Assembly: GCA_025453445.1 (NCBI GenBank)
Contig: JALOQJ010000002.1
Location: 6,249 to 70,248, forward strand
Origin: Candidatus Omnitrophota bacterium
GTDB taxonomy: Bacteria; Omnitrophota; Gorgyraeia; Gygaellales; Profunditerraquicolaceae
DNA: 64,000 nucleotides
Direction of reading: 5' to 3'
The translations under genes and the position numbers were made by a program. Below are positions 2,773 through 41,357 of this stretch, piece after piece. Position 1 is the stretch's first letter, and every line of letters begins with the position of its first letter. Below the pieces are notes generated by a model that saw only the letters and a program-made list of their open reading frames with translations, was not told where the DNA came from and did no database searches.

Positions 2773-4059
2773 TTACCATTTCAAATTCCAATCAACCTGA
2801 ACAACTTGCTGCGGTAAATAACTTCCTGATGCTGAGCCGCTTGTTTGCTGGGATAAAGACTTCGCCCAATAATAATCAAGACATAGGCTGGTATTTTTTC
2901 CCAAGCCATATTCAAGGATTGCTTCAACGCTCTTCATATTAGTTTTTCCGTTATAACGGTCTGAATCAGGAAAAATATCAAGGAAAGCATCCCTGCCTAA
3001 TTTGGAAAAAAGGATTCTTGACTGCCACTGCCCCCAATCTCCGACTTTCTCATGCCCGAATTTAATGCCGGCATCAAAACCGCTCTTACCGGTATCAGGA
3101 TCCGGATTATATACAAAATCACTGAACATGCCGGCATAGGGTATATATTTCGCCAAAACCGGAATGCTTGAGAAAGGATCCCTGATGCCAACTTCCAAGC
3201 TAGGGTTGACTACATTATAATGGTATTTATACTGATTGTTACGAGTAAGTGAATTAGTGGATTGTTTGGCAAATTTCCCCACTCCGGTAATATTAGAAAA
3301 ATAATAACCGGTAACTGCAGCTCTCAAGTCAACTTTATCACGCCAGTTATATTTGATACCGGGTTGGAAAGCCCACATCAATGAATTCAATCCTTTAGCA
3401 TCATCATAACCTAAAACAAACATTTCAGTATTTAGAAACAGCCCTAAAGATGGGTTTAACCGGTAATCCATCTGCATATTAAGGCCTTCAGGATTTAAAT
3501 CAGTATCCCAAAGCAAATCCGTAGGCTGCCAAATAGGATTTTTGAATTTACCGCCGGTTAAGGTCAACCAAGTAGTAGGAGAATACGAACCGTAAGCATA
3601 ATCCAATATTACGGTTTTGGAAGCGCCGGGAGTCGTAGGATCATTACCAAGGGTTACATTTGTTGAACGCGGGTCACTTGTGCTGCCGGTAGCAAGCCCC
3701 AAGCCAACTTTCATCTGGTCATTAACTTTAGCTTCCGCACCCAGCCTTACCCTGATCCTTGCCTGGTTAGTATCATCTTTAGCTCTTTGCCTTGTATACT
3801 GATAACGCATCCTGAAATCACCTTTAAACTTAAGCCTCTGCACCCACTCCGGCAATAATTCATATTTTGCCGATACGATTTCTTTCCTGATTTCTTCTTT
3901 GGTTTCGGTTTTTACCTGCTGCGCTTCTCCCGGTGTTAAAACACCTTTTTCTACAAGTTTCTGTAAAAGCAGGTCTATCTCGCCTGCATAAGCCTTATTA
4001 AAATTAAAACACATGAGACTAAACATAGAGATTAAAAATACCCCTAAAAACCTCCTCAT
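2773..4059 (-). CDS. outer-membrane porin, possibly phosphate-selective (OprO/OprP-like)
   Basis: Signal peptide MRRFLGVFLISMFSLMCFNFNKAYAG with an AGGAGG RBS. Coiled N-terminal segment followed by a long beta-rich, Y/F-rich barrel-like region. The ORF ends ...DWNLKW without the classical terminal aromatic residue. Placed directly upstream of pstS. The family assignment is inference. Confidence 0.5.
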   Translation of the reverse strand: MRRFLGVFLISMFSLMCFNFNKAYAGEIDLLLQKLVEKGVLTPGEAQQVKTETKEEIRKEIVSAKYELLPEWVQRLKFKGDFRMRYQYTRQRAKDDTNQARIRVRLGAEAKVNDQMKVGLGLATGSTSDPRSTNVTLGNDPTTPGASKTVILDYAYGSYSPTTWLTLTGGKFKNPIWQPTDLLWDTDLNPEGLNMQMDYRLNPSLGLFLNTEMFVLGYDDAKGLNSLMWAFQPGIKYNWRDKVDLRAAVTGYYFSNITGVGKFAKQSTNSLTRNNQYKYHYNVVNPSLEVGIRDPFSSIPVLAKYIPYAGMFSDFVYNPDPDTGKSGFDAGIKFGHEKVGDWGQWQSRILFSKLGRDAFLDIFPDSDRYNGKTNMKSVEAILEYGLGKNTSLCLDYYWAKSLSQQTSGSASGSYLPQQVVQVDWNLKW

Positions 4060-4126
4060 TTCTCTTCCCTCCTTTTTGTTTAATTGTTTGCAAAAAATTC
4101 CCAAATATCCTTCCCTCCTTTCAGTT

Positions 4127-4546: not shown

Positions 4547-4770
4547 TTTCCTTTTAGATTATTACTTATTCTATTCAGGCGTATTGCCCGTAGAATCTAT
4601 CCATGCTCTCAATCTCTGATTCGATTAACGCATCGAAATACCGGACGATTCTTGTAATGATTTTTTTAGCTCTCTTGAACATGCCTCACCTTTATCCTTT
4701 CCTCAGGACAAAGTATAGAATATGGGCATTAAATTGATTTGAAGGAGGTGTAAAATGTAGGTAAACAAAA

Positions 4771-4850
4771 GTAGGGACGGTTCTCAAGCCAAAGCAGAAG
4801 TGTCCCCTTTAAAGGGGACACTTCTAGAACAAATTGAGAACCGTCCCTAC
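4771..4850. repeat. REP doublet: two inverted REP units (GTAGGGACGGTTCTCAA-N8-AGAAGTGTCCC) joined at TTTAAA, forming an ~80-bp near-perfect palindrome
   Basis: Seen directly in sequence. The element abuts the phoR stop codon. The same REP unit flanks the RAYT transposase at 11569 and 12158. Confidence 0.65.
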
Positions 4851-6632
4851 TTATATAGGAAGGTTAAACCAGAATTTTGATCCGAGGCCTTCAACGCTCT
4901 CGACGCCAACAGAGCCTTTGTGCAATTCAATAATATGTTTTACAATTGAAAGCCCAAGGCCAGTGCCGCCGAGTTCGCGCGAGCGCGCTTTATCAACACG
5001 ATAGAAACGTTCAAAGATCCGAGGAAGATCTTTTGTAGGGATACCAATTCCTGAGTCTTCTACAATAACCTTAGTTTTGCCTGTTAGATCCTGAGAATAG
5101 ATTTTAACAAAACCGTTATCTCTATTGAATTTAATGGCATTAGCCAGCAAATTTGTAATCACTTGTTCGATCTTATCCTTATCTGCCAGAATCATTAAGC
5201 CTGATTGCAAATTATTTTCAATCTTAATATTCTTCTTATTTAATTGTGATGTAAATCCTAAAATCACCTTATTGAATAAATCGCGCAGCTTGATTTCTTG
5301 GGAATCCAATTCTATCTCCCGCGATTCAATACGAGAAAGTTCAAGCAAATCATTAATCAGGTTATCCAAACGGTTTGTGTGCTCATGGACAATTTCTAAG
5401 AAATGAAGGCTATTTTCCTTATCATTAAGCGCCCCCTCTAAAAGAGTTTCAACAAACCCTTTTATCGAAGTAAGCGGAGTCTTCAGCTCATGCGAAACAT
5501 TTGCCACGAAATCCCGGCGCATAGTTTCCAATTTCCTTATCTCGGTAATATCATGTAAAACCAGCAGGCTGCCATTGATCATGCCTTGCTTTTCATAAAT
5601 AGGCGCGACATTGACCTGAAAAACCCCCTGCACAGGCCAAGATAGGATAAGCTCCCTGGAAACAGATTCTCCCTTTTTTAGCGCCCTGCTTATCTCTTCT
5701 GCAATATCGCTATTGCGTATAACTTCTAAAAATAATTTTCCTTGTGCTTCTTTCTTTTTAATAGCAAATATCTTTTCTATGGCAGAATTAATAGAAACAA
5801 TCCGGCTTTCTTTATCTAAAACAACTACGCCTTCTATCATGCTGTTGAAAACCGCTGTCAGCTGCTGGCTTTGAATTGTAATTTCCCTTACTTTCTCTTC
5901 TATATCTTCTGCCATCTTATTTAAAGTCCGGGCAAGTTCACCAATTTCATCTTGAGAATCATGCAGTATCTTTCGGCTGAAGTCGCCTAAGGAAAACCTG
6001 CGCGAAGCATGGATGATTTTATTCACCGGCTTAATTATAGTGCCGGCTAACATAGAACCGAAAACAAAAGCAAGGCCTAAAGCAAACAAGAAACCCAAAG
6101 TAACTGCTTTTCTAATAACTAATAAATTCCTCCTGACATTCTCAAGCGGAAGCGCTACTCTTATTGCTCCGATCACCGCCTTTTTATAGCGAAGCGGTAT
6201 AGCCACATAAAGCATGTCTATCCTGAGGGTAGAAGAATACCTGATGGATTCTCCCGTACTCCCGACTAAAGCTTGTTTAAATTCCGGGCGCGAGGCATGA
6301 TTTTCCATACCTTGCAGATCAGTTTGAGATTTTTCAGAATCCGCCAAAACCTTGCCTGAAAGCCCTATTATCGTTAAGCGAGCATTATTCTTTTGGCTAA
6401 AATTTTTTACCAGCTCAGACAAATAAAGTAAAGACTCGTTTTGGATAGCCTCTGTAGAAATCTGAGTTTCAATAAGATTAGCCTGATTAATAAGGGAAGA
6501 TTTTAAATCCTGAAGGGAATTTTCTTCCAGTTTTTTATCCAGAAAAAAAGCAACCAAACCAAAAGAAAATAAAACTACCAAAAAATACGAAAAAATCAGC
6601 TTAAATTTAAAACTTTGCTTCTTAAATATCAT
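4851..6632 (-). CDS. phoR: sensor histidine kinase, PhoR-like (2 TM, HAMP, PAS, HisKA, HATPase_c)
   Basis: H-box SHELKTPLTSIKGF, N/G boxes (NLLANAIKF, GGTGLGLSIV) and an N-terminal TM pair. Lies inside the Pho cluster next to a PhoB-like regulator. Confidence 0.75.
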   Translation of the reverse strand: MIFKKQSFKFKLIFSYFLVVLFSFGLVAFFLDKKLEENSLQDLKSSLINQANLIETQISTEAIQNESLLYLSELVKNFSQKNNARLTIIGLSGKVLADSEKSQTDLQGMENHASRPEFKQALVGSTGESIRYSSTLRIDMLYVAIPLRYKKAVIGAIRVALPLENVRRNLLVIRKAVTLGFLFALGLAFVFGSMLAGTIIKPVNKIIHASRRFSLGDFSRKILHDSQDEIGELARTLNKMAEDIEEKVREITIQSQQLTAVFNSMIEGVVVLDKESRIVSINSAIEKIFAIKKKEAQGKLFLEVIRNSDIAEEISRALKKGESVSRELILSWPVQGVFQVNVAPIYEKQGMINGSLLVLHDITEIRKLETMRRDFVANVSHELKTPLTSIKGFVETLLEGALNDKENSLHFLEIVHEHTNRLDNLINDLLELSRIESREIELDSQEIKLRDLFNKVILGFTSQLNKKNIKIENNLQSGLMILADKDKIEQVITNLLANAIKFNRDNGFVKIYSQDLTGKTKVIVEDSGIGIPTKDLPRIFERFYRVDKARSRELGGTGLGLSIVKHIIELHKGSVGVESVEGLGSKFWFNLPI

Positions 6633-8291: not shown

Positions 8292-8980
8292 TATTCTAAC
8301 TCAAATCTGTAACCGTAATTCTTTACCGTAACGATATACTCTGCTGCCCTCTTTAATTTCTTGCGTAATGTCCTGATATGCACATCAACAGTCCGTGTTT
8401 GAATTTCAATGGCATGGTCAAAACCCCAGATAGTATCCAGAAGATAATCGCGTGAAAGCACTCTTCCCTTGGCTTTAATTAATGTTTTCAATAATTCAAA
8501 TTCTTTGCTGGTTAATTCTACTGGTTTTCCGCCTACGCTTACTTGAATTTTAGAAAAATCAATCGAGAGCATCCCTATTTTAAGAATTTCCGGCAAATCG
8601 CCTTTTTCTTTCACACGGCGCAAAACAGCTTTTATGCGGGCAATTAGTTCGCGTGGGCTAAAAGGCTTGGTAATATAATCATCTGCTCCTAATTCAAGCC
8701 CGACGATTTTATCTGCCTCCTGTGCCTTGGCAGTCAGCATGATAATCGGAATATTAGCAGTTTTATTTTCTTTTTTTATAGTTTTACAGACCTCTAATCC
8801 GTCAAGCCCGGGAAGCATCAAATCTAAAACAATCAAATCAGGACGTTCTTTCAGCGCTGAATCAATAGCATCTTCGCCGTCATATGCTGAAATTACCCTG
8901 AAACCTTCTTTCTTCAAGTTATAATCAAGCATTTTGATAATATCGCGCTCATCATCAACAATTAAAATTTTTTCTTTCAC
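8291..8980 (-). CDS. phoB: OmpR/PhoB-family response regulator (receiver + winged helix)
   Basis: ILIVDDERDI...LDLMLPGLDG receiver, and a C-terminal trans_reg_C domain ending YGYRFE. Confidence 0.8.
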   Translation of the reverse strand: MKEKILIVDDERDIIKMLDYNLKKEGFRVISAYDGEDAIDSALKERPDLIVLDLMLPGLDGLEVCKTIKKENKTANIPIIMLTAKAQEADKIVGLELGADDYITKPFSPRELIARIKAVLRRVKEKGDLPEILKIGMLSIDFSKIQVSVGGKPVELTSKEFELLKTLIKAKGRVLSRDYLLDTIWGFDHAIEIQTRTVDVHIRTLRKKLKRAAEYIVTVKNYGYRFELE

Positions 8981-29702: not shown

Positions 29703-31421
29703 TTAATCGTTGGCAGTAACGCGATAAATCTCTTCGATAGTAGTGATCCCGGCTGCAGCCTTAATAATACCGTCACTTCTTAAAGTAATTAACCTTCCTT
29801 CTTTAATCGCCATTTCCCTGATTTCCTCCAGAGGCTTCTCCTGAATTACCATACTTCTGATAATATCATCAACCAGAAATGCCTCCAGAAGCGCTATCCT
29901 GCCTTTATAGCCAGTATTGTAACAAACCGAACAGCCCCGGCCGGCATAAAATTTCATTTCTTGGCTTTGGGCGATTCCCAATTCTTTCAATATATTTGCC
30001 GGGGGTGTTTCCACAGGTTCTTTACAATTAGAGCAGATTTTACGGCAGAGCCTCTGGGCGCAAATCAGGATTAATGATGAAGCGACGAGGTAACGCTCAA
30101 CGCCCATATCAATCAGGCGGGCAAAGGCACTTACTGAATCATTGGTATGCAGGGTACTTAAGATTAACTGGCCGATCAGCGATGCCTTAATGGCGATGTC
30201 GGCAGTTTCCGCGTCACGGATTTCGCCGACCATGATAATATCCGGGCTCTGCCTTAAAATACCGCGCAAAGCAGTGGCAAAAGTAAAATCTATATCCGAC
30301 CTGATCTGTGTTTGTCCTATACCATCGAGCTGATATTCTACCGGATCTTCGACAGTCACGATGTGGCGATGAATTTTATTCAGCTCGTTCAGGACAGCAT
30401 AAAGAGTGGTAGATTTTCCGCTGCCCGTAGGCCCGGTAACCAGGATCATTCCATGATCTTTAGAAATACCCTCTTTCAATAAATTAAAGGAATGCTCGGA
30501 AAACCCTAAATCCTGCAATTTAACCGTAATGCTGGATTTATCAAGGATTCTTAAAACAAATTTTTCCCCATAGATGGTTGGCAGGGATGAAACCCGGAAG
30601 TCTAACTGCTTTCCTTTGGTATTCAGCGAAAACCTTCCGTCCTGCGGTATATAGAATCTGGTGATATCAAGGTTGGAGAGGATTTTAATACGCGCGGCAA
30701 TACCCCTCTGGGTTTTTTTTGGCAAAGAATAAATTTTATGCAGGATGCCGTCAATGCGGTAACGGATAGTTAAATCCTCGTCCCCCGGCTCAAGGTGTAT
30801 ATCGGAAGCGCGTTTGGCAATCGCTTCACCAACAATCCGGTTTACCGCTTCAATAATCGGCTCTTTCTGGCTTTCCTGAATAAGATCTGCCGATTCTTCA
30901 TCTTCAGTTTTCTTTACACGGATGATTTCCAGGGCCTCCTCCTGATCGCCTTCGTATTTTAATATCCCAGGCAGGCTCTGAGTTCCCGTATCCGAATAAA
31001 ATGTATTGATACAGTCTGAAATTATTTGCTCTTTAGCTAAAACCTGCTTGACTTCGCATCCCAGCGAAAGGCGCAAGTTATCGATAGTCAAGATATCCAA
31101 TGGCTCGGCCACGGCAATCAAAAGGGTTTTGCCTATTTTATATAAAGGGAAAAATACATGCTTACGCGCCAAGTCCTCGGGGATAGTGGCAATAATTTTA
31201 GGGTCGATTTCATACCTGGAAGGATCAACAAACGGAATATTCAGATGGTAGGAAATTACAGAAAGCAGTTCATCTTCAGACAAAATGCCTTCATTAATAA
31301 GGATTTCTTTTAACTCGCGGCCGGCCTTTCTCTGAATAAACAAAGCCTTTTCCAGCTGTTCAGCCGTGATTTTACCGGAATCAATTAAAACCTTGCTTAA
31401 GTTTAGCTTACTCCTCGGCAT
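29703..31421 (-). CDS. pilB: GspE/PilB-family secretion ATPase (with T2SSE_N domain and C-terminal tetra-Cys Zn site)
   Basis: Walker A GPTGSGKST, Asp and His boxes, CSNCKEP...CSVCYNTGYKGR, 572 aa. Confidence 0.85.
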   Translation of the reverse strand: MPRSKLNLSKVLIDSGKITAEQLEKALFIQRKAGRELKEILINEGILSEDELLSVISYHLNIPFVDPSRYEIDPKIIATIPEDLARKHVFFPLYKIGKTLLIAVAEPLDILTIDNLRLSLGCEVKQVLAKEQIISDCINTFYSDTGTQSLPGILKYEGDQEEALEIIRVKKTEDEESADLIQESQKEPIIEAVNRIVGEAIAKRASDIHLEPGDEDLTIRYRIDGILHKIYSLPKKTQRGIAARIKILSNLDITRFYIPQDGRFSLNTKGKQLDFRVSSLPTIYGEKFVLRILDKSSITVKLQDLGFSEHSFNLLKEGISKDHGMILVTGPTGSGKSTTLYAVLNELNKIHRHIVTVEDPVEYQLDGIGQTQIRSDIDFTFATALRGILRQSPDIIMVGEIRDAETADIAIKASLIGQLILSTLHTNDSVSAFARLIDMGVERYLVASSLILICAQRLCRKICSNCKEPVETPPANILKELGIAQSQEMKFYAGRGCSVCYNTGYKGRIALLEAFLVDDIIRSMVIQEKPLEEIREMAIKEGRLITLRSDGIIKAAAGITTIEEIYRVTAND

Positions 31422-31424
31422 AAA

Positions 31425-33095
31425 TTAATCCGCAGGCGTAACCCGCAGCACCTCTTCTATGGTCGTGATACCAGCGCGGGCCAAAGCCTCTCCTTCTTCC
31501 CTGAGCGTCTTCATTCCCTCGGAACGGGAAATTTCCTTGATTTTTTTCTCTTCCATTTTTAGAGATGCAATAGAAGTTTTAATTTTCGGGGAGATATATA
31601 AAATTTCGGCAAGCAGCACCCTGCCTTTATAGCCTGAGTCCATGCATTCGTTGCACCCGTGCCCGCGAAAATAAGGCTGGTTGGGAATTTTTTCCTTACA
31701 ATGGATACAGATCCTGCGCACTAATCTTTGCGAAATAATACAGAGCACTGAAGCATTAATTAAAAACGGCTCCACCCCCATATCAAGGAGCCGCACTACA
31801 GAGCCTGCGGCAGTAGTAGTATGCAAAGTGCTCAAAACCAAGTGGCCGGTTAAAGCAGCTTTAATCGCAATATCCACGGTCTCAAAATCACGGATTTCTC
31901 CGACCATGATAATATCCGGATCCTGCCTTAAAATAGAACGCAGGCAGCGGCTGAAAGTAAGCCCGGTTTTTAGATTCACCGCGACCTGATTAATACCTTT
32001 AATCTGATATTCGACGGGATCTTCTACGGTAATGATATTTTGTTCCGGGGTGTGGATATATTTTAAGACCGAATAAAGCGTTGAGGTTTTTCCTGACCCT
32101 GCAGGCCCGCAAACCAAAATCATCCCGTGCGGCATATGGGAAACTTTTTTTAAACCTGCCACTGCTTCTTCTTTTAAGCCTAATTTATCAACATCCAAAA
32201 GCCCGGTAGTCTTATCAAGAATCCTGATTGCCGCTTTCTCGCCGGTAATCAGCGGGAAAATCGAAACACGGAAATCTACTTCCCGGTCCCTTAATTTTAT
32301 TTTAAACTGCCCGTCCTGAGGGAAGCGGTGTTCGGCAATATCAAGGTCAGAGATAACCTTAATACGTGAAATGATAAATGGATGAAACGAACGCGGCAGG
32401 CTCTCTATCTGGCGGTACAGCCCGTCGATGCGGAAACGGATACGCGTTGATTCTTCCAGCGGCTCGATAAGTATATCGCTTGCTTTTGATTCAATGGCTT
32501 TATCGAGAATAAAATTGGTGGCTTTAACAATCGGCATCTCCTGCGTAATCTGAGCAAGCTCAGTTAGCTCTACTTCTCCGCGGGTCTTCACCGAAATATC
32601 GGCAAATGCGCTGCCTAAAATATCCTCCATATTCTGCTCTTCGCGGCCGCCGCCACTTTCATTGACAGCATAATAGGTCCTGATTAAAGCCAGCAATTCT
32701 GCTTCCGGTGCAAGCACCGGGTTAATCTGCTGCCCGTGCAATTCTTTGATATCGTCTAAATCAAGGATGGTTACCGGATCAGCCAGCCCAAGAGTAATAC
32801 CAGCTTCGCTTTTCATTAAGGGAAAAATGTTATGCTTACGCGCAACTTCCGTAGGGATGAGTGCCGTGACATCCGAACTGATCTTCAGCTGAGAGGTATC
32901 GACATGCGGGATATTAAGATGGACGTTGATAAATTCAAGCAGGGCTTCCTTAGGGATAAAATTCTTCCCGATTAACAGGCTGCTGAGTTTGCCGCCTTCT
33001 TTTTTCTGGGTGCTGAGGATCTCCTCGGTATGCTGCAAAGTCAAAAAACCCTTTTGCACCAACAGCTGGATTATCTGCCGCTTAGAATAATACAT
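31425..33095 (-). CDS. second GspE/PilB-family secretion ATPase (paralogue)
   Basis: Walker A GPAGSGKTST, CIHCKEK...CNECMDSGYKGR, N-terminal T2SSE_N domain, 556 aa. Confidence 0.85.
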   Translation of the reverse strand: MYYSKRQIIQLLVQKGFLTLQHTEEILSTQKKEGGKLSSLLIGKNFIPKEALLEFINVHLNIPHVDTSQLKISSDVTALIPTEVARKHNIFPLMKSEAGITLGLADPVTILDLDDIKELHGQQINPVLAPEAELLALIRTYYAVNESGGGREEQNMEDILGSAFADISVKTRGEVELTELAQITQEMPIVKATNFILDKAIESKASDILIEPLEESTRIRFRIDGLYRQIESLPRSFHPFIISRIKVISDLDIAEHRFPQDGQFKIKLRDREVDFRVSIFPLITGEKAAIRILDKTTGLLDVDKLGLKEEAVAGLKKVSHMPHGMILVCGPAGSGKTSTLYSVLKYIHTPEQNIITVEDPVEYQIKGINQVAVNLKTGLTFSRCLRSILRQDPDIIMVGEIRDFETVDIAIKAALTGHLVLSTLHTTTAAGSVVRLLDMGVEPFLINASVLCIISQRLVRRICIHCKEKIPNQPYFRGHGCNECMDSGYKGRVLLAEILYISPKIKTSIASLKMEEKKIKEISRSEGMKTLREEGEALARAGITTIEEVLRVTPAD

Positions 33096-33164: not shown

Positions 33165-34880
33165 TTATTTAATATCTATGAGGCTGAGGTCTTTGCCAAT
33201 CACCCCGGAAGAAGACATCACTACGAGGCCGATAACTTTCGTCCCCGGGTCTGCATATTGAGCAGTAAAAGACGCCTGTTGGCCTGAAGGCATATCTTTG
33301 CCTGTATCTCCGGACCAAAGATATTGCATCTCAACCGACATACACCCGCTTGCTCCGGAGAAACCAGAAGCAATAATCTGCACCGGAGAGCCTGCCCCTG
33401 CTCCGGAAGGATTCACATTTAAATCCACCCTAGATGTCTCGGGGCTTAAGGGGCCCGGCTTTAAAGCAGCGTCCAAAAATGATTTTAAATTATATTCCAT
33501 CGGCTTAGCTGCGTTAATTTCTTTTATCCTCTCGTTGGCAAAAAATACAGACTCTCCAAAATTGGCTCCTGCTAAATCGATTAATTTATTAAAATATGTT
33601 TTCGCTGCTTCATAATTATTAACCCATTCTGCCAGAATTCCAAGCTGATAAAGCCCGGAAATTACCTGCGGGCTTACTGAATCTTTTTTTGCTAATTTTT
33701 CAAAATAACTTTTCGCTTCATCAAGATCAGTTAATATATAAGCTGCGATAATCCCTGCCTTAAAACAGGCTTCATCAGCATGAGGGCCTTGCGGAAAACG
33801 AGTAGCTAAATCATCATAGAATCTTTTAGCTAAACCATATTCTTTTATTTTTTCAGAATTTATCGCGCGCAGGTACAAGAGGTCTTCGCTAAAAGCATCC
33901 TTACCGCCTATTTCTTCAATTTTTTCAAATATTTTTTCCGCGTATACCGGACTAGACGGGCCTTTAACCTTTCCGCCGTAGGCGGATCCGCCTTCGGCGG
34001 AGTAAGCAAATGCTTTGGCGATTTCAATCAAAAGCGGCAGGGATTTATCCTTTGGGTATTGGATAATTTTTGCCGTATAAATATCATAAATGCTTTGTGC
34101 TAAATCCATACTGCCCTGTTGATAAAATCCCGCGGCAATTTCCTTTAGCCTATCGTCGCTGGTTTCCGAAGAAACCGTTCGGTCCAGATAAATTTTATAG
34201 AATTGTTTTGCCTTAGCTTTTTCTCCCGCAGCGGATAATTCATCGGCAAGGCTCTTCAGCGGCTCTGCATCATTAGTTTCCTTTGCATAGGAAGAAGCAA
34301 AATCCATCAGGTCAACCAACGCAGCCTCGGCCTGAGAACCCTGCTGTTCATAATGGAATTTCCATAAAAGAATACGCGCATAAATTCCCAAGGGATCAGA
34401 GGCATCAATTTGGCTGATTGATTTCTTAAGAGACCCGGTTAACTCATCACGATAAACATTGCCCTGATTAAAATATTCTTCCCAAAGCTGAGCTTCTTCC
34501 AAATGCTCCAGTTGATAATAGCGGCTCAGAGCAATGTAATAGCCTGCTGCCGCAGCAAGCTCTTTTTTTTGCTCCGCCAAAGATTTTAGAAATTCAATAT
34601 ATTCATTATATTTATTTTCCTTGAAATATAAATCGGTTAAATTTTCCAAAGCCGGATAAAGCTCTTTATTGGACTTGGCCTCCATAACCTGCTTAGTCAA
34701 GTCGGCTAACTTTGCATTATCCTGAGCATACGCTAAATGACAAATACCAAAGCACAAAATCCAAAATAAGCACAAATGGCAAATGATAAATGACAAAACG
34801 TTTTGTTTTGAAATTTGAAATTTGAAATTTTGATTTATTTTGTCATTTGAATTTTGATATTTGTCATTAATTTTTCTCAT
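33165..34880 (-). CDS. exported TPR-repeat protein with C-terminal beta domain (hypothetical)
   Basis: Signal peptide ...ICHLCLFWILCFGICHLAYA|QD, TPR-like helices, then a C-terminal beta-rich domain. Confidence 0.55.
   Translation of the reverse strand: MRKINDKYQNSNDKINQNFKFQISKQNVLSFIICHLCLFWILCFGICHLAYAQDNAKLADLTKQVMEAKSNKELYPALENLTDLYFKENKYNEYIEFLKSLAEQKKELAAAAGYYIALSRYYQLEHLEEAQLWEEYFNQGNVYRDELTGSLKKSISQIDASDPLGIYARILLWKFHYEQQGSQAEAALVDLMDFASSYAKETNDAEPLKSLADELSAAGEKAKAKQFYKIYLDRTVSSETSDDRLKEIAAGFYQQGSMDLAQSIYDIYTAKIIQYPKDKSLPLLIEIAKAFAYSAEGGSAYGGKVKGPSSPVYAEKIFEKIEEIGGKDAFSEDLLYLRAINSEKIKEYGLAKRFYDDLATRFPQGPHADEACFKAGIIAAYILTDLDEAKSYFEKLAKKDSVSPQVISGLYQLGILAEWVNNYEAAKTYFNKLIDLAGANFGESVFFANERIKEINAAKPMEYNLKSFLDAALKPGPLSPETSRVDLNVNPSGAGAGSPVQIIASGFSGASGCMSVEMQYLWSGDTGKDMPSGQQASFTAQYADPGTKVIGLVVMSSSGVIGKDLSLIDIK
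34736..34880. repeat. ~140-bp palindromic element overlapping the start codon and signal-peptide coding region (copy A)
   Basis: ATGACAAATA...TATTTGTCAT-type inverted arms. Paralogous to 39711-39845. Confidence 0.6.
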
Positions 34881-36133
34881 TTGGATTTTACCTTTCCTTT
34901 TTTATCGAATTGACTTATGCTCGGGTTTTTCCAAAACTCTCTGATTATATAATAACTTTTTTTAGGAATACGTTTATGCAGGCCGTTTTCCAAATCTTGT
35001 GAAAGAGAAACAATCCCAAACCACTCCTCATTCATATTTTTATTGCCCGGCACTTGTATATCAGAATAATAACTGCCATTGGACCAGTTTGATTCGGTAT
35101 CGTGCACAAGCCAACCTTCAGCATAAGCATCATTATGCTTCCACCATTCATCAGTCCACTCGAACATAAACCCGCCGAGGCAATTACCTTCGCCTTCCTT
35201 GCCATTGGCAAGATTATCAAAAATCTGCCGCCACTGAGACTCCAGGAAAAATGCCTGGATATTCTGGTCTTCTTTATTTAAATAAGCATCGTAGCTGTCC
35301 GCACCGAATTCCGCAATCACTATCGGCCGGTTAAAAGTTGCTTTCAAGGATTTAAACAACGGCCCGAACGTTTTGCCTCGATAAATAATGCAAGCGACTA
35401 AATCTATGTCCGGGCAAAATTGCCCGGCAGTATCCAAGCCTACTAATTCACCGTTTCCCAAAGCAACCGGATGATTCCTATCAAGCATATGGATTTCTTT
35501 GGCAATATTATTTACATAAGAATAATAAATTTTTGCGCGCATAAATTGCTGGGTGCGCGGGTTTATCTCTTTATCTATTTCGTCGGTTGACCAGGGATTT
35601 ACCCGTCCAAGGCAGGAATAATTATTTTCATTGCCTAATATCCAGAAAATGACCCCCGGTTCGTCTTTGTACAGGCGGACCATTTCCAGAATTTCTTTTT
35701 TAATCCGCTCTTCAAACTGTTTATTGCCGTAGAGCGGGCAAGGGTATTCCCAAAAGCCCAGCCAATGCCCTAAAGCAGTGCGGATACCATAAAGATTATA
35801 TAAATCACGGATGGCTTGTTTTACCTTTTCCGGATCCTGCCCTGCCTGATAGATCCTGACGGTGTTGATCCCCATTTCCTGCATTAATTTTCCGTCTACT
35901 AACCACGGCTTGGCAGAATCTGACCACCAGTCGTATTCATGGTTTGCTCCGATAGGTGCGGGGTTATAACAAACGCCCTTGATAATATAAGGTTTATTAT
36001 TAATGATTAATTGATAATGGCCGGTTTTTAATTTATTTATATAAACGCAAGGTTTCTTAGGCTTAACAAGAGAAAAAATTAGGATAAAAACTATTATTGC
36101 GGCAAGTACAGAAAAAAATATTTTCTTGAGCAT
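34877..36133 (-). CDS. clan GH-A-like TIM-barrel glycoside hydrolase (family not assignable)
   Basis: N-terminal anchor. GINTVRIY, ILGNENN (acid/base region) and VIAEFG (nucleophile region). Paralogous to the C-terminal half of 37489..39843. Confidence 0.5.
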   Translation of the reverse strand: MLKKIFFSVLAAIIVFILIFSLVKPKKPCVYINKLKTGHYQLIINNKPYIIKGVCYNPAPIGANHEYDWWSDSAKPWLVDGKLMQEMGINTVRIYQAGQDPEKVKQAIRDLYNLYGIRTALGHWLGFWEYPCPLYGNKQFEERIKKEILEMVRLYKDEPGVIFWILGNENNYSCLGRVNPWSTDEIDKEINPRTQQFMRAKIYYSYVNNIAKEIHMLDRNHPVALGNGELVGLDTAGQFCPDIDLVACIIYRGKTFGPLFKSLKATFNRPIVIAEFGADSYDAYLNKEDQNIQAFFLESQWRQIFDNLANGKEGEGNCLGGFMFEWTDEWWKHNDAYAEGWLVHDTESNWSNGSYYSDIQVPGNKNMNEEWFGIVSLSQDLENGLHKRIPKKSYYIIREFWKNPSISQFDKKGKVKSK

Positions 36134-36146
36134 ATCTCTAGTTTGA

Positions 36147-36180
36147 GCAGGTAGGCGAGGTTTAAACCTCGCCTACCTGC
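36147..36180. repeat. 34-bp perfect palindrome GCAGGTAGGCGAGGTTTAAACCTCGCCTACCTGC
   Basis: Seen directly in sequence. Intergenic, 14 nt upstream of the 34877..36133 start. Its core GAGGTTTAAACCTC is shared with the four palindromes inside the giant ORF. Confidence 0.8.
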
Positions 36181-36210
36181 AAGACTTCCCCCTACCTACT
36201 ACCTACTAGT

Positions 36211-37431
36211 TTATTCGTACCTTATTTCATCCAGATAGAACGTGGCACCTTCCGGATTAGCGTCTAAATTCGATGACCAGCAAAAACCACCGATAATATA
36301 GGAAGCATCTTTACCTTTTAAATCGATAGTATATTGCGTCCACTCTTTGTTTAAAATCACAGGGCCGATAGTGGCAGTATCTGAATCAGAATACTCCCCC
36401 ATAATCCCGCCGATTTTAAACTCTTCGATTCTCTCGCCGCCATTTGCGCCTTTAGCCCAAAAGGTAAGCTTAGTAGCCTTGGAAAGATCGAAGCCGCCGT
36501 CAACTGTTCCCCAGTTATTTGCCGGGTTCAGCCAATAAATACCCGCCCAGCGGGAACCTTGCGTAGCTTTATTATTATAAATAAGCTTTATGCAAGTATC
36601 GCCTAAATAGGGATCTTCTTTATTGACGCCCTCATATTTAATATCGCTGTAATCACCCATGAATCCCGATGCGATAAAATGATTCTTCGGAGAGGAACTG
36701 TCGGAATAAACATAGAAAGGCATGCTTTCCTGTTTGCGGGTTTCCGGTTTCAGCCCTGTATCAACTTCGTATTTTACATCGTCGATGTAAAAAACAGCTC
36801 CGTTTGGATTCTGATCTGCCGAAGCAACCCAGCCAAAACCGCCGCTGATAAAGGAAAGATCCTTGCCTGCAAGATTAATTGTATATTCTTTCCATGTATC
36901 AGTTAATTCAACCGGCCCCATTTCTACCAAAGTCGAATCAGGATAAGCGCCCTTGATTCCGCCAACGACAAACTTCTGAATTACCTCGCCGCCTTTAGCG
37001 CCTCTGGCCCAAAAGGTAAGCTTGGTCATACCGGTTAAATCAAATCCGCCTTTTTTAGAACCCCAGTTATTCGCCGGATTTTGCCAATACATACCTGCCC
37101 AACCTTGGCCTTGGGATTTTTTCGCACTGTAGCTAAATTGCAGGCAGGTTGTGCCGCCATGCGGATTTTCCATAAATTGATCGTTTAATTTGAGATCTCC
37201 GGAATCACCCATCCAACCTGAAGGTATAAAATGATTATCCGCAGAACGCTTATCCGTATAAACATTAAACGCCTTCTGTCCGGCAGGTTGTGCCGCTACC
37301 GCTGCTTCTTCGGCAAAAGCAAAACCTGCAAACGATATAACGCAGGCAAGCGCTAATGCCATGATACCTATTTTTTTCATTTGTTTCCCTCCTTTTATTT
37401 TAGCTGCTTCTAACAAGTAAAAAAATTTCAT
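36211..37431 (-). CDS. secreted protein with two tandem ~170-aa beta-sandwich (CBM-like) domains
   Basis: Signal peptide and an internal duplication (FNVYTDKRSADNHFIPSGWMGD... / FYVYSDSSSPKNHFIASGFMGD...). W- and G-rich. Confidence 0.5.
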   Translation of the reverse strand: MKFFYLLEAAKIKGGKQMKKIGIMALALACVISFAGFAFAEEAAVAAQPAGQKAFNVYTDKRSADNHFIPSGWMGDSGDLKLNDQFMENPHGGTTCLQFSYSAKKSQGQGWAGMYWQNPANNWGSKKGGFDLTGMTKLTFWARGAKGGEVIQKFVVGGIKGAYPDSTLVEMGPVELTDTWKEYTINLAGKDLSFISGGFGWVASADQNPNGAVFYIDDVKYEVDTGLKPETRKQESMPFYVYSDSSSPKNHFIASGFMGDYSDIKYEGVNKEDPYLGDTCIKLIYNNKATQGSRWAGIYWLNPANNWGTVDGGFDLSKATKLTFWAKGANGGERIEEFKIGGIMGEYSDSDTATIGPVILNKEWTQYTIDLKGKDASYIIGGFCWSSNLDANPEGATFYLDEIRYE

Positions 37432-37488
37432 ATCTGTTTTTATTGTACTGCCTCCTTTCTACCTCCTCATTGAGCCCGCTATTACAAA

Positions 37489-39843
37489 TTATTTCCACAT
37501 CTTTTTATATGTATAATAACTTTGCCGTAATTGCCTTAAGAAAGGGCTCAATTTACCGTCGCCCTGTGAATTTAAACCAAACCATTCCTCATGATAGTAT
37601 CCATCAGGAAACGGCCCCATGGCCACACCCCGCGTATCATGAATAAACGGCTCATACTGTTTCCACCATTCATCAAGCCATTCAAAAACAACGCCGCCTA
37701 AAGAATTGCCTGCGCCTGTTTTAAAAGCCATGTTATCTTCGATATCTTCCCATGAGCCTCTATAATATTCTGCTTGCAAAGATTCTGATTCTTCTGTATT
37801 TTTGCCTTGGGCATAAGCAGGGCAGCCAAATTCAGTAACCACCACCGGAATATCTGCTGCTTCTTTTGCCTGCCGCCATAAAAATCCGAATCCGTAATTA
37901 CCGCGGTAGGCATTAACTCCCACAATATCTATATTGGGTGCATCTTTGCCTAATTTATCGAGGAATAAAATATCTCCGTTACCGATAGCTACAGGATGAT
38001 CCGTGTCAATTGCCTTAATTGCCAGCGCTACTTCATCGGCAAATTTGAAAAAAGCATCCGGTTCTTTGTCGGCATTGCAGGCATAGCCATAGACATTTTC
38101 ATTGCCTAAAAGCCAGAATAAAACATACGGCTCGCCTTTAAATTCCTCAACCATCCCCAGCACTGATTTTTTCATCTTCTTTTTCTGCTCGTCATCGGTA
38201 TAATCCGTGCCGGGATTCCATTGGGCGCCTGAGCCAATAGCATACTTGCCGAAAAAATCGCCCATGATTACCATTATACCATATTTTTCGTACATGTCCC
38301 TGAGGAGTTCTTTGTCCACTTTAAAGGGCTGATGATAAAGCCGAATAGTATTGACGCCCATTTCTTTCATTAATTTAAAATCACCTACTGCCGGCTCATC
38401 TTTATCCTGCAGATTATTCATATTTCTGTCCACAAAAGCCTCGTAAGGCCCGTCGATTATGCCGTTCTGATTAAAATCGTCTTCCATCCAGTTGGTTTGC
38501 GTGCCATTATCCGGAGACTGGCCTACTTTGGTAGGAGTATATGTCACTCCTTTGACTACATAAGGCTTACCATGGACAATCAACTCCCAATCACCGGTTT
38601 CATATTGAAGCAGATGTACTTTGCCTTTGCCGCGGCGTTTTTTCACACTTAATAGATTCCTGTCCGGCTTGGATTTTAATTTCTCAAGCGGTTTAATTTT
38701 AATAAATGCCCCCGGATTAACTACTGCAATATCATTGGAAACATCATTATCAAAACCATTGATAATTTTAATATCCGCATCAGCTAATTTATAGCCTATC
38801 TGCGGATTGTTTTTCAGCAAATAATTTATTTTGGCAACTGCTGCTTGGCCTAGGTACCAAGGGGTATGCCAATAAGTCCAGCCATAACTGCCGGGGAAAT
38901 GCACGACAATAGCATAGTAACATTTAATCGCATGCTTGATCAGGCCGGATTTTTCAAGCATTTGCGCAGTATAAAAAAGCCGCACACCCTGTGGCTCAGA
39001 GGAAGTTGCCCATTTTAAGAATGCTGCTTCCAAGTCAGGTGAATGCAGAAAATCCCAGTGTGTACCTTCAAGCCTTTTTTCTTTTAATGCCTTTTTGAAT
39101 TCCGGATCCCAGCGTATCGAGGTAGTGTTAGGAAAAATCCCTTCCCCAACAGCAGCGCTTAAACCCTCCTGATCATTAATTGCGTATTTATAATCTTTGG
39201 TCCCCACATTCTGAAATTCACCGTATTTTTCATAATTCACAATGTCTTCTTTGCCCGGGTCATATAAAACTATTTTTGTGGAAAGCTGGCTTACTTTTGG
39301 CAGAACCTGTTTAGGCGGCGTTTGGCTGGTGCGGCCCTCTAGCTTATCAATACTTTCTTGGGCAGTCTTGGAAATTTGCCAAAACCAGCCGCGCTGATCC
39401 CAAGCTTGCGCATAATTATATTTATCAATGATAATTTTAAAAGTTTTAACTGCTTCTTCTTTCATCTGGCGCTGCATGTAAGACTCAGCCTGAATAAAAT
39501 AAGCAGTGGCAACGTCATTTAAAACTTCCACCGCTTCAATTTCCCGCTTACCTTTAGGCAGCTCTTTTAACGAAGCTTGTTCCTTATCAGCCTCTAAGCT
39601 ATATAGATTAATGCACTCTTGGGTATATTTAAAGGTAGCCTCAATATCACCCTGACCATGTACCGCCCAGGCCTTAGTGATTAACTCACCGGAAGATGGC
39701 TTAGCATCTTCAGCGTATAAATGACAAATACCAAAGCACAAATGACAAAATAACACCAAAACACAAATACCAAATAACAAAACTTTAGTTTTGATATTTG
39801 GTATTTGAAATTTGGATTTATTTTGTGCTTTGAATTTTGTCAT
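37489..39843 (-). CDS. exported TPR-like + clan GH-A-like hydrolase fusion protein
   Basis: Signal peptide ...FCHLCFGICHLYA|ED. C-terminal half carries GVNTIRLY, LLGNEN and VVTEFG motifs paralogous to 34877..36133. Confidence 0.55.
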   Translation of the reverse strand: MTKFKAQNKSKFQIPNIKTKVLLFGICVLVLFCHLCFGICHLYAEDAKPSSGELITKAWAVHGQGDIEATFKYTQECINLYSLEADKEQASLKELPKGKREIEAVEVLNDVATAYFIQAESYMQRQMKEEAVKTFKIIIDKYNYAQAWDQRGWFWQISKTAQESIDKLEGRTSQTPPKQVLPKVSQLSTKIVLYDPGKEDIVNYEKYGEFQNVGTKDYKYAINDQEGLSAAVGEGIFPNTTSIRWDPEFKKALKEKRLEGTHWDFLHSPDLEAAFLKWATSSEPQGVRLFYTAQMLEKSGLIKHAIKCYYAIVVHFPGSYGWTYWHTPWYLGQAAVAKINYLLKNNPQIGYKLADADIKIINGFDNDVSNDIAVVNPGAFIKIKPLEKLKSKPDRNLLSVKKRRGKGKVHLLQYETGDWELIVHGKPYVVKGVTYTPTKVGQSPDNGTQTNWMEDDFNQNGIIDGPYEAFVDRNMNNLQDKDEPAVGDFKLMKEMGVNTIRLYHQPFKVDKELLRDMYEKYGIMVIMGDFFGKYAIGSGAQWNPGTDYTDDEQKKKMKKSVLGMVEEFKGEPYVLFWLLGNENVYGYACNADKEPDAFFKFADEVALAIKAIDTDHPVAIGNGDILFLDKLGKDAPNIDIVGVNAYRGNYGFGFLWRQAKEAADIPVVVTEFGCPAYAQGKNTEESESLQAEYYRGSWEDIEDNMAFKTGAGNSLGGVVFEWLDEWWKQYEPFIHDTRGVAMGPFPDGYYHEEWFGLNSQGDGKLSPFLRQLRQSYYTYKKMWK

Positions 39844-39845
39844 TT
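39711..39845. repeat. ~135-bp palindromic element overlapping the start codon and signal-peptide coding region (copy B)
   Basis: ATGACAAATACCAAAGCACAAATGACAAAA ... TTTTGTGCTTTGAATTTTGTCATTTGTCAT. The arms are reverse complements of each other. Confidence 0.6.
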
Positions 39846-39857
39846 GTCATTAACCTG

Positions 39858-41357
39858 CTATTGACCTTCCCGTCTTTCTCCTTTTCGCCTTTCTTCTTCT
39901 ACCCGTATTTCTTCATTGCGTCTTTCTGTTCTTCTGCGCTCTACCTGCGCACGGATGTCATAGGCTTTAGCTTCTGAAATATCGAAAGTCATAATAATAA
40001 AAATAGCAATTATAGAAGTCACAATCGGGATGCCGATATCGCACAGGCGCATATACAGTAAAGCTTGCGGTGTCTGGCTGGCGCCTAATGCAATATTGAA
40101 GCCGGTTACATTCAGAAGGATGCCGGAGAGAATCGATGCACCTGCTTGTCCGAGTTTTTGTATCCACCAGTAAATACCGCTAAACATACCTTCTCTGCGG
40201 GTACCGCAGCATAACTCATCTAAATCGCAGACATCAGCGACCATAGAAGGAACCATAGTGAAGAGCGCTCCCAGATGAAATGCCAAAAACGGAACAGCGA
40301 TCATCAATAAATAGGGATGTTGAGGATTATACCCTATCCATTTCAAGGCATAACCGACAATAGCAAGGCACATGGCAATTAAAAAAGTTTTCCGCTTTCC
40401 AATCTTTGTGGAGACCCAGGTGGTTAAGGAAATTGCAATTAAAGTACAAACAGAACTTGCCGTTCCGAACCAACCAAGCAATGTGCCACCCTTCCCCCAA
40501 TCGCCACCATAAACATAGTAGACAATAACATAAAGTGTAAAGGCAGAAGCAAGCATGAACCCGTTAAAAATTAAAAATGTTACTGCGATAAGCTTAACAA
40601 AAGGGAGGCATTTTAAAGAGGTTGCGCAATTGCTCAAGAGGTTTTTTATAACATTCCAATAGCCCTTTTCTCTTTTAGCCCTCGGCAAGTTAGCAAAGAG
40701 CTCTTTGCTAAAGATAGCGGGAAGTATGCCGCCGACTACGATAAAGACTCCGACCATGATAGCAATGGAGCGTGCTCCATGAACAATATCGGTAAACATA
40801 GTCTTATTGTTCATTATTTTAAAGAACCATGGCGCGACAAGCCAGGCAATCTGAGCGAAAAAGTTGCTGAATCCCTGCAACCGGGTCCGCTCATGGTAGT
40901 CAGGAGTCATTTCATAGCCGAGCGCGATCCAGGGGATCGAATAACAGGCAAAGGAAACAACAAAGAAACATTGGATGATTAAAAAATACCAAAAATAGAA
41001 ACTTTCCACTTGCCCTTTGTGGAGATTAAACATTAATGCAAATAAAATTCCGGAAGAAAGAGCTCCAAAGAATATCCAAGGTTTACGCCGTCCCCAACGG
41101 GTCCGGGTATTATCTGAACTGTGGCCGATTAATGGGTCTGAAAAAGCATCAATAAGACGGGGGATGGCACCGATTAAACCGACTAAAGCCGGATTCATGC
41201 CTAATCCTAAGTTTAAAACAATGACAAGCGATCCAATCGCAGCAGCCTGAAATTGATTAACAAGCCCTCCTATACTATATGCGATTTTTTGAAAAATAGG
41301 GATACGATCTGCGCGGGCTGTAATATGGTGTCCTGACTGGCCTTTTGATTGTTCCAT
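39858..41357 (-). CDS. MFS transporter, glycoside-pentoside-hexuronide (GPH/MelB-like) symporter family, with charged C-terminal tail
   Basis: 12 TM segments, MFS_2-like organisation, and an RR/EE-rich C-terminus. Confidence 0.7.
   Translation of the reverse strand: MEQSKGQSGHHITARADRIPIFQKIAYSIGGLVNQFQAAAIGSLVIVLNLGLGMNPALVGLIGAIPRLIDAFSDPLIGHSSDNTRTRWGRRKPWIFFGALSSGILFALMFNLHKGQVESFYFWYFLIIQCFFVVSFACYSIPWIALGYEMTPDYHERTRLQGFSNFFAQIAWLVAPWFFKIMNNKTMFTDIVHGARSIAIMVGVFIVVGGILPAIFSKELFANLPRAKREKGYWNVIKNLLSNCATSLKCLPFVKLIAVTFLIFNGFMLASAFTLYVIVYYVYGGDWGKGGTLLGWFGTASSVCTLIAISLTTWVSTKIGKRKTFLIAMCLAIVGYALKWIGYNPQHPYLLMIAVPFLAFHLGALFTMVPSMVADVCDLDELCCGTRREGMFSGIYWWIQKLGQAGASILSGILLNVTGFNIALGASQTPQALLYMRLCDIGIPIVTSIIAIFIIMTFDISEAKAYDIRAQVERRRTERRNEEIRVEEERRKGERREGQ

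Follow-up and report, generated by a model that had tools for sequence, protein, structure and literature searches.

We analysed a 64,000-nucleotide stretch of DNA (hereafter the window) from a Candidatus Omnitrophica metagenome-assembled genome (assembly GCA_025453445.1, contig JALOQJ010000002.1, positions 6,249 to 70,248), in which two genes for predicted exported proteins, gene A (MUC39_00765) and gene B (MUC39_00780), both begin with a long palindromic DNA element that is read as part of the protein. The product of gene B combines TPR repeats with a GH2-like TIM barrel, and that of gene A, for which a Pfam search gave no match, is a TPR-like ('TolA-binding') protein (Table 1). An earlier note on this DNA had described palindromes of about 135 bp at the 5′ ends of both genes, and an inverted-repeat search found them in the form of two 65-nt arms that are 80% complementary and enclose a 2-nt loop in gene B (39720-39784 / 39787-39851), and two 64-nt arms that are 72% complementary and enclose a 5-nt loop in gene A (34736-34799 / 34805-34868).

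Table 1. Positions in the window of the two genes, their palindromic elements and associated features; in the cleavage sites a slash marks the predicted cut
Feature	Coordinates	Strand	Description
Gene A, MUC39_00765	33165..34880	-	Predicted exported TPR-like ('TolA-binding') protein, 571 aa
Predicted signal peptide, gene A	34725..34880	-	52 codons; predicted cleavage AYA/QD
Element copy A	34734..34870	-	137-bp imperfect palindrome, same family as copy B
Smaller repeat in gene A	33972..34001	+	Two tandem 15-nt GC-rich hairpins, TCCGCCGTAGGCGGA TCCGCCTTCGGCGGA
GH2-like gene	34877..36133	-	Upstream of gene A; stop overlaps gene A start (ATGA)
Gene B, MUC39_00780	37489..39843	-	Predicted exported protein, TPR repeats and GH2-like TIM barrel, 784 aa
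Predicted signal peptide, gene B	39712..39843	-	44 codons; predicted cleavage LYA/ED
Element copy B	39718..39853	-	136-bp imperfect palindrome, TTAATGACAAATG...ATTTGTCATTTA
MFS sugar transporter gene	39858..41357	-	Upstream of gene B

Both copies are built from a degenerate 7-nt unit, CAAANNN in the 5′ arm and NNNTTTG in the 3′ arm, with about 9+9 such heptads in copy B (5′ arm ~39853-39787, 3′ arm ~39784-39718). The heptad word TTTGTCATTTGTCAT, with up to three mismatches, occurs 15 times in the window against 3.6 expected, and 12 of these 15 matches lie inside the two elements. Pairwise, the copies align from TTAATGACAAAT to ATTTGTCATTTA, and their likeness at the DNA level stops exactly at the element ends (TTAATGAC... 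/ ...GTCATTTA), beyond which the flanks are unrelated. Copy A has one base more than copy B in the loop; the 5′ arms are translated in different frames in the two genes, and this 1-nt indel brings the 3′ arms into a common frame. Since the 5′ arms are read in different frames, the resemblance between the two leaders is one of DNA rather than of protein. A profile built with nhmmer from 18 copies scored copy B at 118.5 bits on the minus strand, compared with 88.8 on the plus strand, and copy A at 106.2 bits on the minus strand. Hairpin and nhmmer searches of the whole window found no further copy, and A and B are its sole long hairpins of this kind. Folded as RNA, both are more stable than dinucleotide-shuffled sequences: copy B at -65.7 kcal/mol (z-score -7.8; none of 200 shuffles as good) and copy A at -43.4 kcal/mol (z -3.4; one of 200 shuffles as good).

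The two elements encode nearly all of the predicted signal peptides. The ATG of gene B, at 39843, lies at position +11 inside copy B, and its leader is element-encoded except for the final two codons (YA). The n-region MTKFKAQNKSKFQIPNIKTK carries a net charge of +6 and precedes a 24-aa uncharged stretch with a mean Kyte-Doolittle hydropathy of 2.34, and the translation runs on to ...CHLCFGICHLYA/ED, with leucine at -3 and alanine at -1. From the end of the element up to the conserved mature N-terminus KPSSGELITKAW the reading frame contains no ATG, GTG or TTG, and therefore at least the 3′ arm must be translated. Gene A has its own host ATG at 34880, located 10 nt 5′ of copy A and overlapping the upstream stop, and its codons 4-49 are element-encoded. 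The leader has a net charge of +4, an uncharged stretch of 27 aa and alanine at both -3 and -1, and ends in ...CFGICHLAYA/QD. The proposal that the palindrome contains the start codon thus holds for gene B and fails for gene A. A basic n-region, a hydrophobic h-region and small residues at -3 and -1 give both leaders the layout of Sec-type signal peptides cleaved by signal peptidase I (SPase I). The Cys- and His-rich sequences that the earlier note had reported are present in both translations; the residues come from TTTGTCA / TTTGTGC heptads read as TGT CAT TTG TGC, and what had seemed an odd signature is a by-product of heptad reading rather than a distinct motif.

Copies A and B are members of a family that is dispersed in Candidatus Omnitrophota. 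A search with the leader peptide alone matched two small 'open reading frames' (ORFs), both of which are intergenic copies of the element, one between two glycosyltransferase genes and the other after hisG. An exact scan of the JGI metagenomes with a pattern of 22 specified bases from the 5′ arm found at least 120 contigs, and the same pattern was absent from 2.9 million viral contigs. The nhmmer profile recovered 148 distinct copies in the loci searched and, of 80 Omnitrophota neighbourhoods of gene B at species level, it matched 12; the genes flanking the copies varied and the sites were unrelated. The element is about 136 bp long and 'A-first', that is, an A-rich CAAANNN arm is followed by a short loop and a complementary T-rich arm, and its entire length, from TTAATGACAAATG to CATTTGTCATTAA, is an imperfect inverted repeat; a canonical copy reads TTAATGACAAATGACAAAATTCAAAGCACAAAATAAATCC...CAAAAC-loop-GTTTTG...GATTTATTTTGAATTTTGTGCTTTGTCATTTGTCATTAA. 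It holds no transposase gene, the only ORF within it being a leader-like frame of 24-55 aa that is often closed by a stop. With a size of 136-137 bp (below ~300 bp), terminal inverted repeats and many dispersed copies, it shares these properties with transposable elements of the miniature inverted-repeat type (MITEs). A literature search returned nothing on palindromic repeats in Omnitrophota.

In a census of 100 unique copies, all with a 3′ end that could be recognised, the default position of the element was intergenic. Forty-six copies lie between genes, immediately 5′ of a gene on the same strand, as a rule with a Shine-Dalgarno sequence after them and an ATG at a distance of 10-40 nt, and 23 run into the downstream ORF, about 19 of these being genuine in-frame N-terminal fusions and four being artefacts of TTG extension. 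In 70 of the 100 copies a same-strand upstream gene stops at -14 to +145 nt of the element start, mostly at -4 to +9 and sometimes within the element's own terminal TTAATGA. The usual site is a spacer between two same-strand genes, with the element beginning right at the upstream stop or after it and 10-40 nt remaining between its end and the next start. In most copies there is an ATG at +10/+11, from which the A-rich arm reads M-T-K-(S/F)-K-x-Q-N-K-S-K... and the T-rich arm a run of Phe, Leu, Ile, Val and Cys. This frame remains open to the end of the element in 17 of the 23 fused copies, compared with 15 of the 46 intergenic ones, where it is usually closed at TTA-TTT-TGA or at the terminal CAT-TAA to give peptides of 12-55 aa. 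The fused copies, including both copies in the window, have TGT/TGG and TTA/TCA/TAT where intergenic copies have stops. Some fusions use a host ATG and other frames (copy A in the window and the copy at locus L092), and their leaders are still hydrophobic. The fusion partners examined are envelope proteins, namely three LptC/LptA-like proteins, SurA, two SPOR-TPR proteins and a BamD-like TPR protein; one further partner is a Memo-AMMECR1 protein. We considered whether intergenic copies encode a conserved small hydrophobic peptide and rejected this, the frame usually closing after 12-55 codons at variable points.

In the same place, close orthologs of the two genes have either ordinary signal peptides or other palindromes. 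Homologs of gene B number more than 1,400; the best 120 show 67-76% identity and are conserved from ...KPSSGELI on, with hypervariable N-termini; many orthologs have an ordinary signal peptide ending at the same site, such as MKKFLILSFILALCVLGLAFA/QDKPSS (...LAFA/QDKPSS). The closest gene A ortholog (P0124, at locus L203; 75% amino acid identity) has the plain leader MIKNKILNFIFLLIFSAFTFLQFSVSIFA/QDN (...SIFA/QDNTKL). Aligned with the DNA of this locus, the gene A region of the window matches up to ATGAxAAAAAT and again from TGCyCArGATAAT, and between these points 69 nt of plain signal-peptide sequence, unstructured when folded (z -0.1), correspond to 141 nt with the element in the window. The start codon of gene A and its ATGA overlap are conserved in this relative. 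A second pair of filled and plain loci, L020 and L038, shows the same boundaries with another palindrome family.

Why such an element should read as a signal peptide follows from its symmetry. Complementary codons encode residues of opposite hydropathy, and for this reason the translated element consists of a basic stretch rich in Lys, Asn, Gln and Thr and then 20-27 hydrophobic residues. Whichever strand of an 'A-first' palindrome is read, the polar part precedes the hydrophobic one. We therefore favour the interpretation, to which we assign a probability of about three in four, that the leaders of genes A and B are members of a palindromic repeat family of Candidatus Omnitrophota, non-autonomous and resembling MITEs and Rickettsia palindromic elements (RPEs), which here came to serve two unrelated envelope proteins as their export signal. 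In the GH2/TPR protein the n- and h-regions would come from copy B, which also provides the start codon; in the gene A TPR protein they would come from copy A, placed after a host ATG and three codons. In both genes the host would have kept only the c-region with the cleavage site (YA/ED and AYA/QD) and the mature protein, the element has replaced an earlier ordinary signal-peptide sequence, and the fused copies have lost the stops that close the frame in intergenic copies. The make-up of the element, its dispersal, its contexts and frames and the replacement relative to orthologs are direct observations. Sequence features, the orthologs and the nature of the fused proteins together suggest that the element-encoded leaders direct Sec export and are cleaved, and the dispersal of the family points to mobility of the element. 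The earlier idea of a MITE-like palindrome co-opted as start codon and signal peptide is thus borne out by the dispersed family, by the fusions with their stops removed and by the plain orthologs, except that the start codon of gene A does not come from the element.

Several observations weigh against this interpretation. Replacement is more exact than simple insertion predicts, with the old h-region gone. At the same slot, the window and two loci of closely related genomes with closely similar flanks (L204 and L205) have three different, unrelated palindromes. Family leaders are scattered on a neighbour-joining tree of gene B orthologs, on which the nearest relatives of the window protein (75-78% identity) carry other leaders, and monophyly of the element-bearing orthologs was accordingly rejected; this scatter would imply that something beyond random insertion is acting, whether targeting, gene conversion or turnover in situ, but it is weak evidence because the tree is poorly resolved. 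The orientation of copies relative to flanking genes, defined by the order of two heptads in the arms, is biased 69:15 in favour of the same direction (binomial p 2e-9; loci L083-L202 and the window), a bias for which the interpretation does not account and that exists although the termini are symmetric and the sense RNA is not more stable. With regard to mobility, joined flanks compared by BLAST with all loci revealed no empty site for intergenic copies, only plain-signal-peptide counterparts, and a target-site duplication is not provable, the flanking TTA/TAA being inseparable from the palindrome. Neither a transposase nor an autonomous parent sharing these ends turned up in about 2 Mb, a negative that is weak because only this amount was searched; pairs of ends 0.4-4 kb apart had been candidates and proved to be separate elements flanking ordinary genes. 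As for the leaders themselves, h-regions of 24-27 aa and n-regions of 20-25 aa are longer than typical, and because of this unusual length an uncleaved membrane anchor is possible for both proteins. Finally, there is no obvious Shine-Dalgarno sequence upstream of the gene B ATG, which itself lies in the stem.

The use of palindromes at this site extends beyond one family. Among 59 species-level gene B orthologs, 17 have a leader region that folds with z below -3, and these hairpin leaders belong to at least six unrelated palindrome families, told apart by peptide signatures such as KSVKRKVKAQSLK with LSFSFALFALHF, NHKSQITNHK with GIWRLLIVCNLV, and KSEYRNSKQ with SDLFRISNLGFRI. For the leaders at L204 and L205 the z-scores are -5.4 and -4.3. 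Traces of the heptad are also present in leaders that form no hairpin. In 40 plain gene B leaders the autocorrelation was 0.352 at lag 7 and 0.350 at lag 14, whereas controls from the mature region gave 0.251 at lag 7 (Mann-Whitney p 1e-6), and 18 of the 40 showed an excess above 0.1. Tandem heptads occur in hairpin-less leaders as GCGATAT x4, TATGCCA x3 and GCCATTT x3 (L003-L082, for example L012, L015, L028, L009 and L081), and yield leaders with a 7-residue period, such as AICHMPYAICQ. The other signal peptides within the window showed no 7-nt periodicity. These findings suggest that the signal-peptide slot may have been overwritten and have decayed repeatedly. More generally, we tentatively propose, as a possibility on which we would not rely, that in Omnitrophota the stretch from start codon to SPase site of some envelope genes is a slot repeatedly overwritten by heptanucleotide-repeat palindromes. 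Such turnover might be functional, through translational coupling or through heptad slippage that switches export on and off. At one locus (L053, ~8700-8890) a run of N lies inside a palindromic leader (CAGTCAA x4 ... TGGACTG repeats), which suggests that assemblers break at such hairpins.

The best-placed alternative to recruitment of a repeat as an export signal, and still an unlikely one, is that the hairpin is primarily a cis-regulatory mRNA structure, whether for hiding the start, coupling to the upstream gene, stabilising an intercistronic region or presenting an RNase III site, and that its coding of a signal peptide is secondary. The predicted hairpins are very stable, the copies sit in operons directly after upstream stops and in the orientation of the genes, and effects on the fate of mRNA are known for ERIC, Correia and REP elements (PMC10969869; PMC2229807). 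In gene B, moreover, the initiation region has a mean unpaired probability of 0.29, the fifth lowest of 35 genes in the window. Start hiding, which the earlier note had offered as an alternative function, nevertheless lacks support as a general explanation: the gene A start lies outside the stem and its accessibility, 0.68, is the second highest of the same 35 genes. The arms do not covary, since 78.3% of cells are paired compared with 79.3% when the 3′ letters are shuffled among the 18 aligned copies, and the covariation score is 0.055 against 0.063 in shuffles; pairing comes from the invariant CAAA/TTTG scaffold, and the variable triplets are mostly mismatched. Selection on the RNA would make the sense strand the more stable one, but it is the antisense RNA that is more stable, by 2.4 kcal/mol on average, which counts against such selection. 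Rfam gave no real match, only look-alikes of microRNA precursors below threshold (33.9 bits compared with a gathering score of 65), and a scan of the entire window returned nothing at the gathering score and no tRNAs. No terminator-like site was found at the elements, promoter-like matches there are uninformative in such AT-rich DNA, and about 70% of gene B orthologs have unstructured leaders. We thus found no support for a specific RNA function of the hairpin. Translational coupling to the upstream genes is a reasonable idea in view of the gene arrangement: the stop of the MFS gene and element B are 4 nt apart, with the gene B ATG 15 nt downstream of that stop, and gene A would be coupled through its ATGA overlap.

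Less probable still is an origin in situ, by slippage of heptanucleotides within the signal-peptide coding region followed by inverted duplication, possibly as an on/off switch, with the dispersed copies being secondary. Besides the 7-nt periodicity and perfect heptad runs of hairpin-less gene B leaders described above, this proposal could draw on the plain signal peptide at L038, which resembles the 3′ arm alone of the L205 palindrome, on the near-identical loci L103 and L153, which differ by 21 nt or three heptads, and on the CTCTT leader repeats of Neisseria opa genes and their phase variation. The window copies, on the other hand, belong to a family with a conserved 5′ arm that occupies over 100 unrelated sites, the majority of them between genes and many preceding genes for cytoplasmic proteins, and their heptads are degenerate and therefore poor substrates for slippage. 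No out-of-frame ('off') variants were present among the orthologs examined; candidates for such leaders were rejected as evidence of phase variation, having turned out to be an assembly gap and an alternative TTG start.

That the elements are purely intergenic and the true starts lie downstream, so that the fusions would be an artefact of annotation, is very improbable and largely refuted. Four of the 23 apparent fusions are indeed TTG extensions in which an obvious ATG with its Shine-Dalgarno sequence directly follows the element (L086, L120, L173 and L179), and the ATG of gene B has no clear Shine-Dalgarno sequence. Gene B has no alternative in-frame start between its element and the mature N-terminus, though, the signal peptide ends at the same site in all orthologs, the gene A start and overlap are conserved in L203, and the frame-closing stops of intergenic copies are absent from both window copies. 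Hardly credible at all is inheritance of a shared leader through an ancestral gene duplication, as the earlier note had implied in calling the proteins paralogous: the two genes do sit in one glycosidase locus and both encode TPR-like repeats, but their mature parts are unrelated (best BLASTP E 0.15), the likeness stops at the element boundaries with the 5′ arms in different frames, and the closest orthologs of each gene, L203 included, lack this leader, which together refute paralogy.

The Omnitrophota element can be compared with several known systems. Judged by its description, one of the closest, and a precedent for the present case, is the YPAL/RU-2 repeat of Yersinia, a MITE-like intergenic palindrome (YPAL ~168 bp) with a hydrophobic reading frame, which was predicted in silico to form part of the YPO1552 signal peptide (Delihas 2007, PMC2759123; PMC2229807). 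That case comes from another phylum and concerns one or a few loci, at which the repeat contributes only part of the signal of a small species-specific ORF. The Omnitrophota element, in contrast, provides the whole n- and h-region, together with the start codon in gene B, takes the place of ordinary signals in conserved envelope proteins, is repeated at about 19 loci and occupies a slot that at least six other palindrome families also use across species. Rickettsia RPEs are palindromes of ~100-150 bp that occur both between genes and in-frame within them, with the frame kept (Ogata et al. 2000, as cited in PMC10969869), and in-frame fusions of palindromic repeats are also known for enterobacterial RU/ERIC elements (PMC10969869). 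Our family likewise combines 46 intergenic copies with about 19 N-terminal fusions in which the frame is maintained, and the 30-bp GC-rich hairpin insertion in gene A (see below) is, like an RPE, internal and in-frame. RPEs differ in phylum and sequence, insert internally to add surface segments, are not heptad-built and have not been reported to act as signal peptides. ERIC/RU-1, Correia (NEMIS) and REP/BIME elements are imperfect palindromes in transcribed operon spacers that are co-transcribed and can form long mRNA hairpins (PMC2229807; PMC10969869). The Omnitrophota unit of 136 bp differs from the 20-40 nt REP unit, which is often associated with RAYT, and from Correia elements, with their defined terminal inverted repeats of 26 bp, TA duplication and motifs of the IHF or promoter type; no family among these is heptad-built or known to provide complete signal peptides.

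Two further systems resemble the element in position or in periodicity. Mycobacterial interspersed repetitive units (MIRUs) are intercistronic and operon-oriented, with small ORFs that abut or overlap the flanking stop and start codons; unlike the Omnitrophota palindromes they are tandem direct repeats of 40-100 bp, non-palindromic, and are not fused as leaders. The CTCTT repeats of Neisseria opa are perfect, slippage-prone leader repeats with demonstrated on/off switching. They share with our heptads a unit length that is not a multiple of 3 and a location inside a signal-peptide coding region that tolerates repetitive hydrophobic sequence, whereas the Omnitrophota heptads are degenerate and palindromic and give no sign of frame switching. 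What is new here is thus the repeat family itself with its heptad architecture, the provision by the element of a complete n- and h-region, plus the start codon in gene B, and the recurrent replacement of the signals of conserved envelope proteins.

A shorter repeat within gene A, two tandem GC-rich hairpins of 30 nt in all (Table 1), is an in-frame 10-aa insertion, SAEGGSAYGG, that is missing from 42 of 45 gene A orthologs, the closest included; two orthologs have a 5-aa half-version at that site. The same 30-mer is also nested in many copies of the large element, just 3′ of AAATAAATCC, and is free-standing at L002 (2768), L119 (11471) and L146 (5656), which suggests a second repeat family, smaller in size and tolerant of coding regions. 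Several large-element copies carry a second nested GC-rich hairpin insert, CCTGCCTGYCGGCAGGCAGG (L013 ~10030, L102 ~5700, L116 ~11380, L162 ~11800 and L200 ~830-980), and the nested insert in L013 is translated within the signal peptide (...KSLPVRQAGKCQ...).

Other features of the window stand apart from the elements. Directly downstream of gene A lie two tandem genes for T2SS-E/PilB-type ATPases with MshEN and T2SSE domains (29703-33095, minus strand), an arrangement kept in the relative L203. Perfect palindromes with the core GAGGTTTAAACCTC occur at 36147-36180, 49894-49921, 54107-54132, 56252-56277 and 59977-60004, five copies compared with none expected, one in the spacer between the genes at 34877..36133 and 36211..37431 and four spaced 2.1-4.2 kb apart in a giant ORF of 5,685 aa (46913-63970, minus strand); Omnitrophota are known for very long proteins. 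In a gap of about 750 nt between the ORFs 2773..4104 and 4851..6632 lies a perfect 19-nt inverted repeat (4769-4852), AAGTAGGGACGGTTCTCAA / TTGAGAACCGTCCCTACTT, whose halves are 46 nt apart.

An 'A-first' palindrome is in effect a ready-made basic-then-hydrophobic export signal, and its insertion before a gene could create or replace a signal peptide in one step, offering a route from selfish DNA to protein function. In Omnitrophota such recruitment appears to have happened many times, and in conserved envelope proteins such as Lpt components, SurA and glycosidases. Element-derived leaders would explain the odd repetitive N-termini found in these genomes, and they call for caution with gene callers and signal-peptide predictors, which may meet both hairpin-encoded leaders and spurious small ORFs. 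If, in addition, the signal-peptide slot has been overwritten time and again by heptanucleotide-repeat palindromes, a sizeable share of signal peptides in this phylum would not be coding sequence that evolved conventionally but selfish repeats, exapted or decayed. In either case, element-derived leaders provide a testable system in which to study the origin and turnover of signal peptides.

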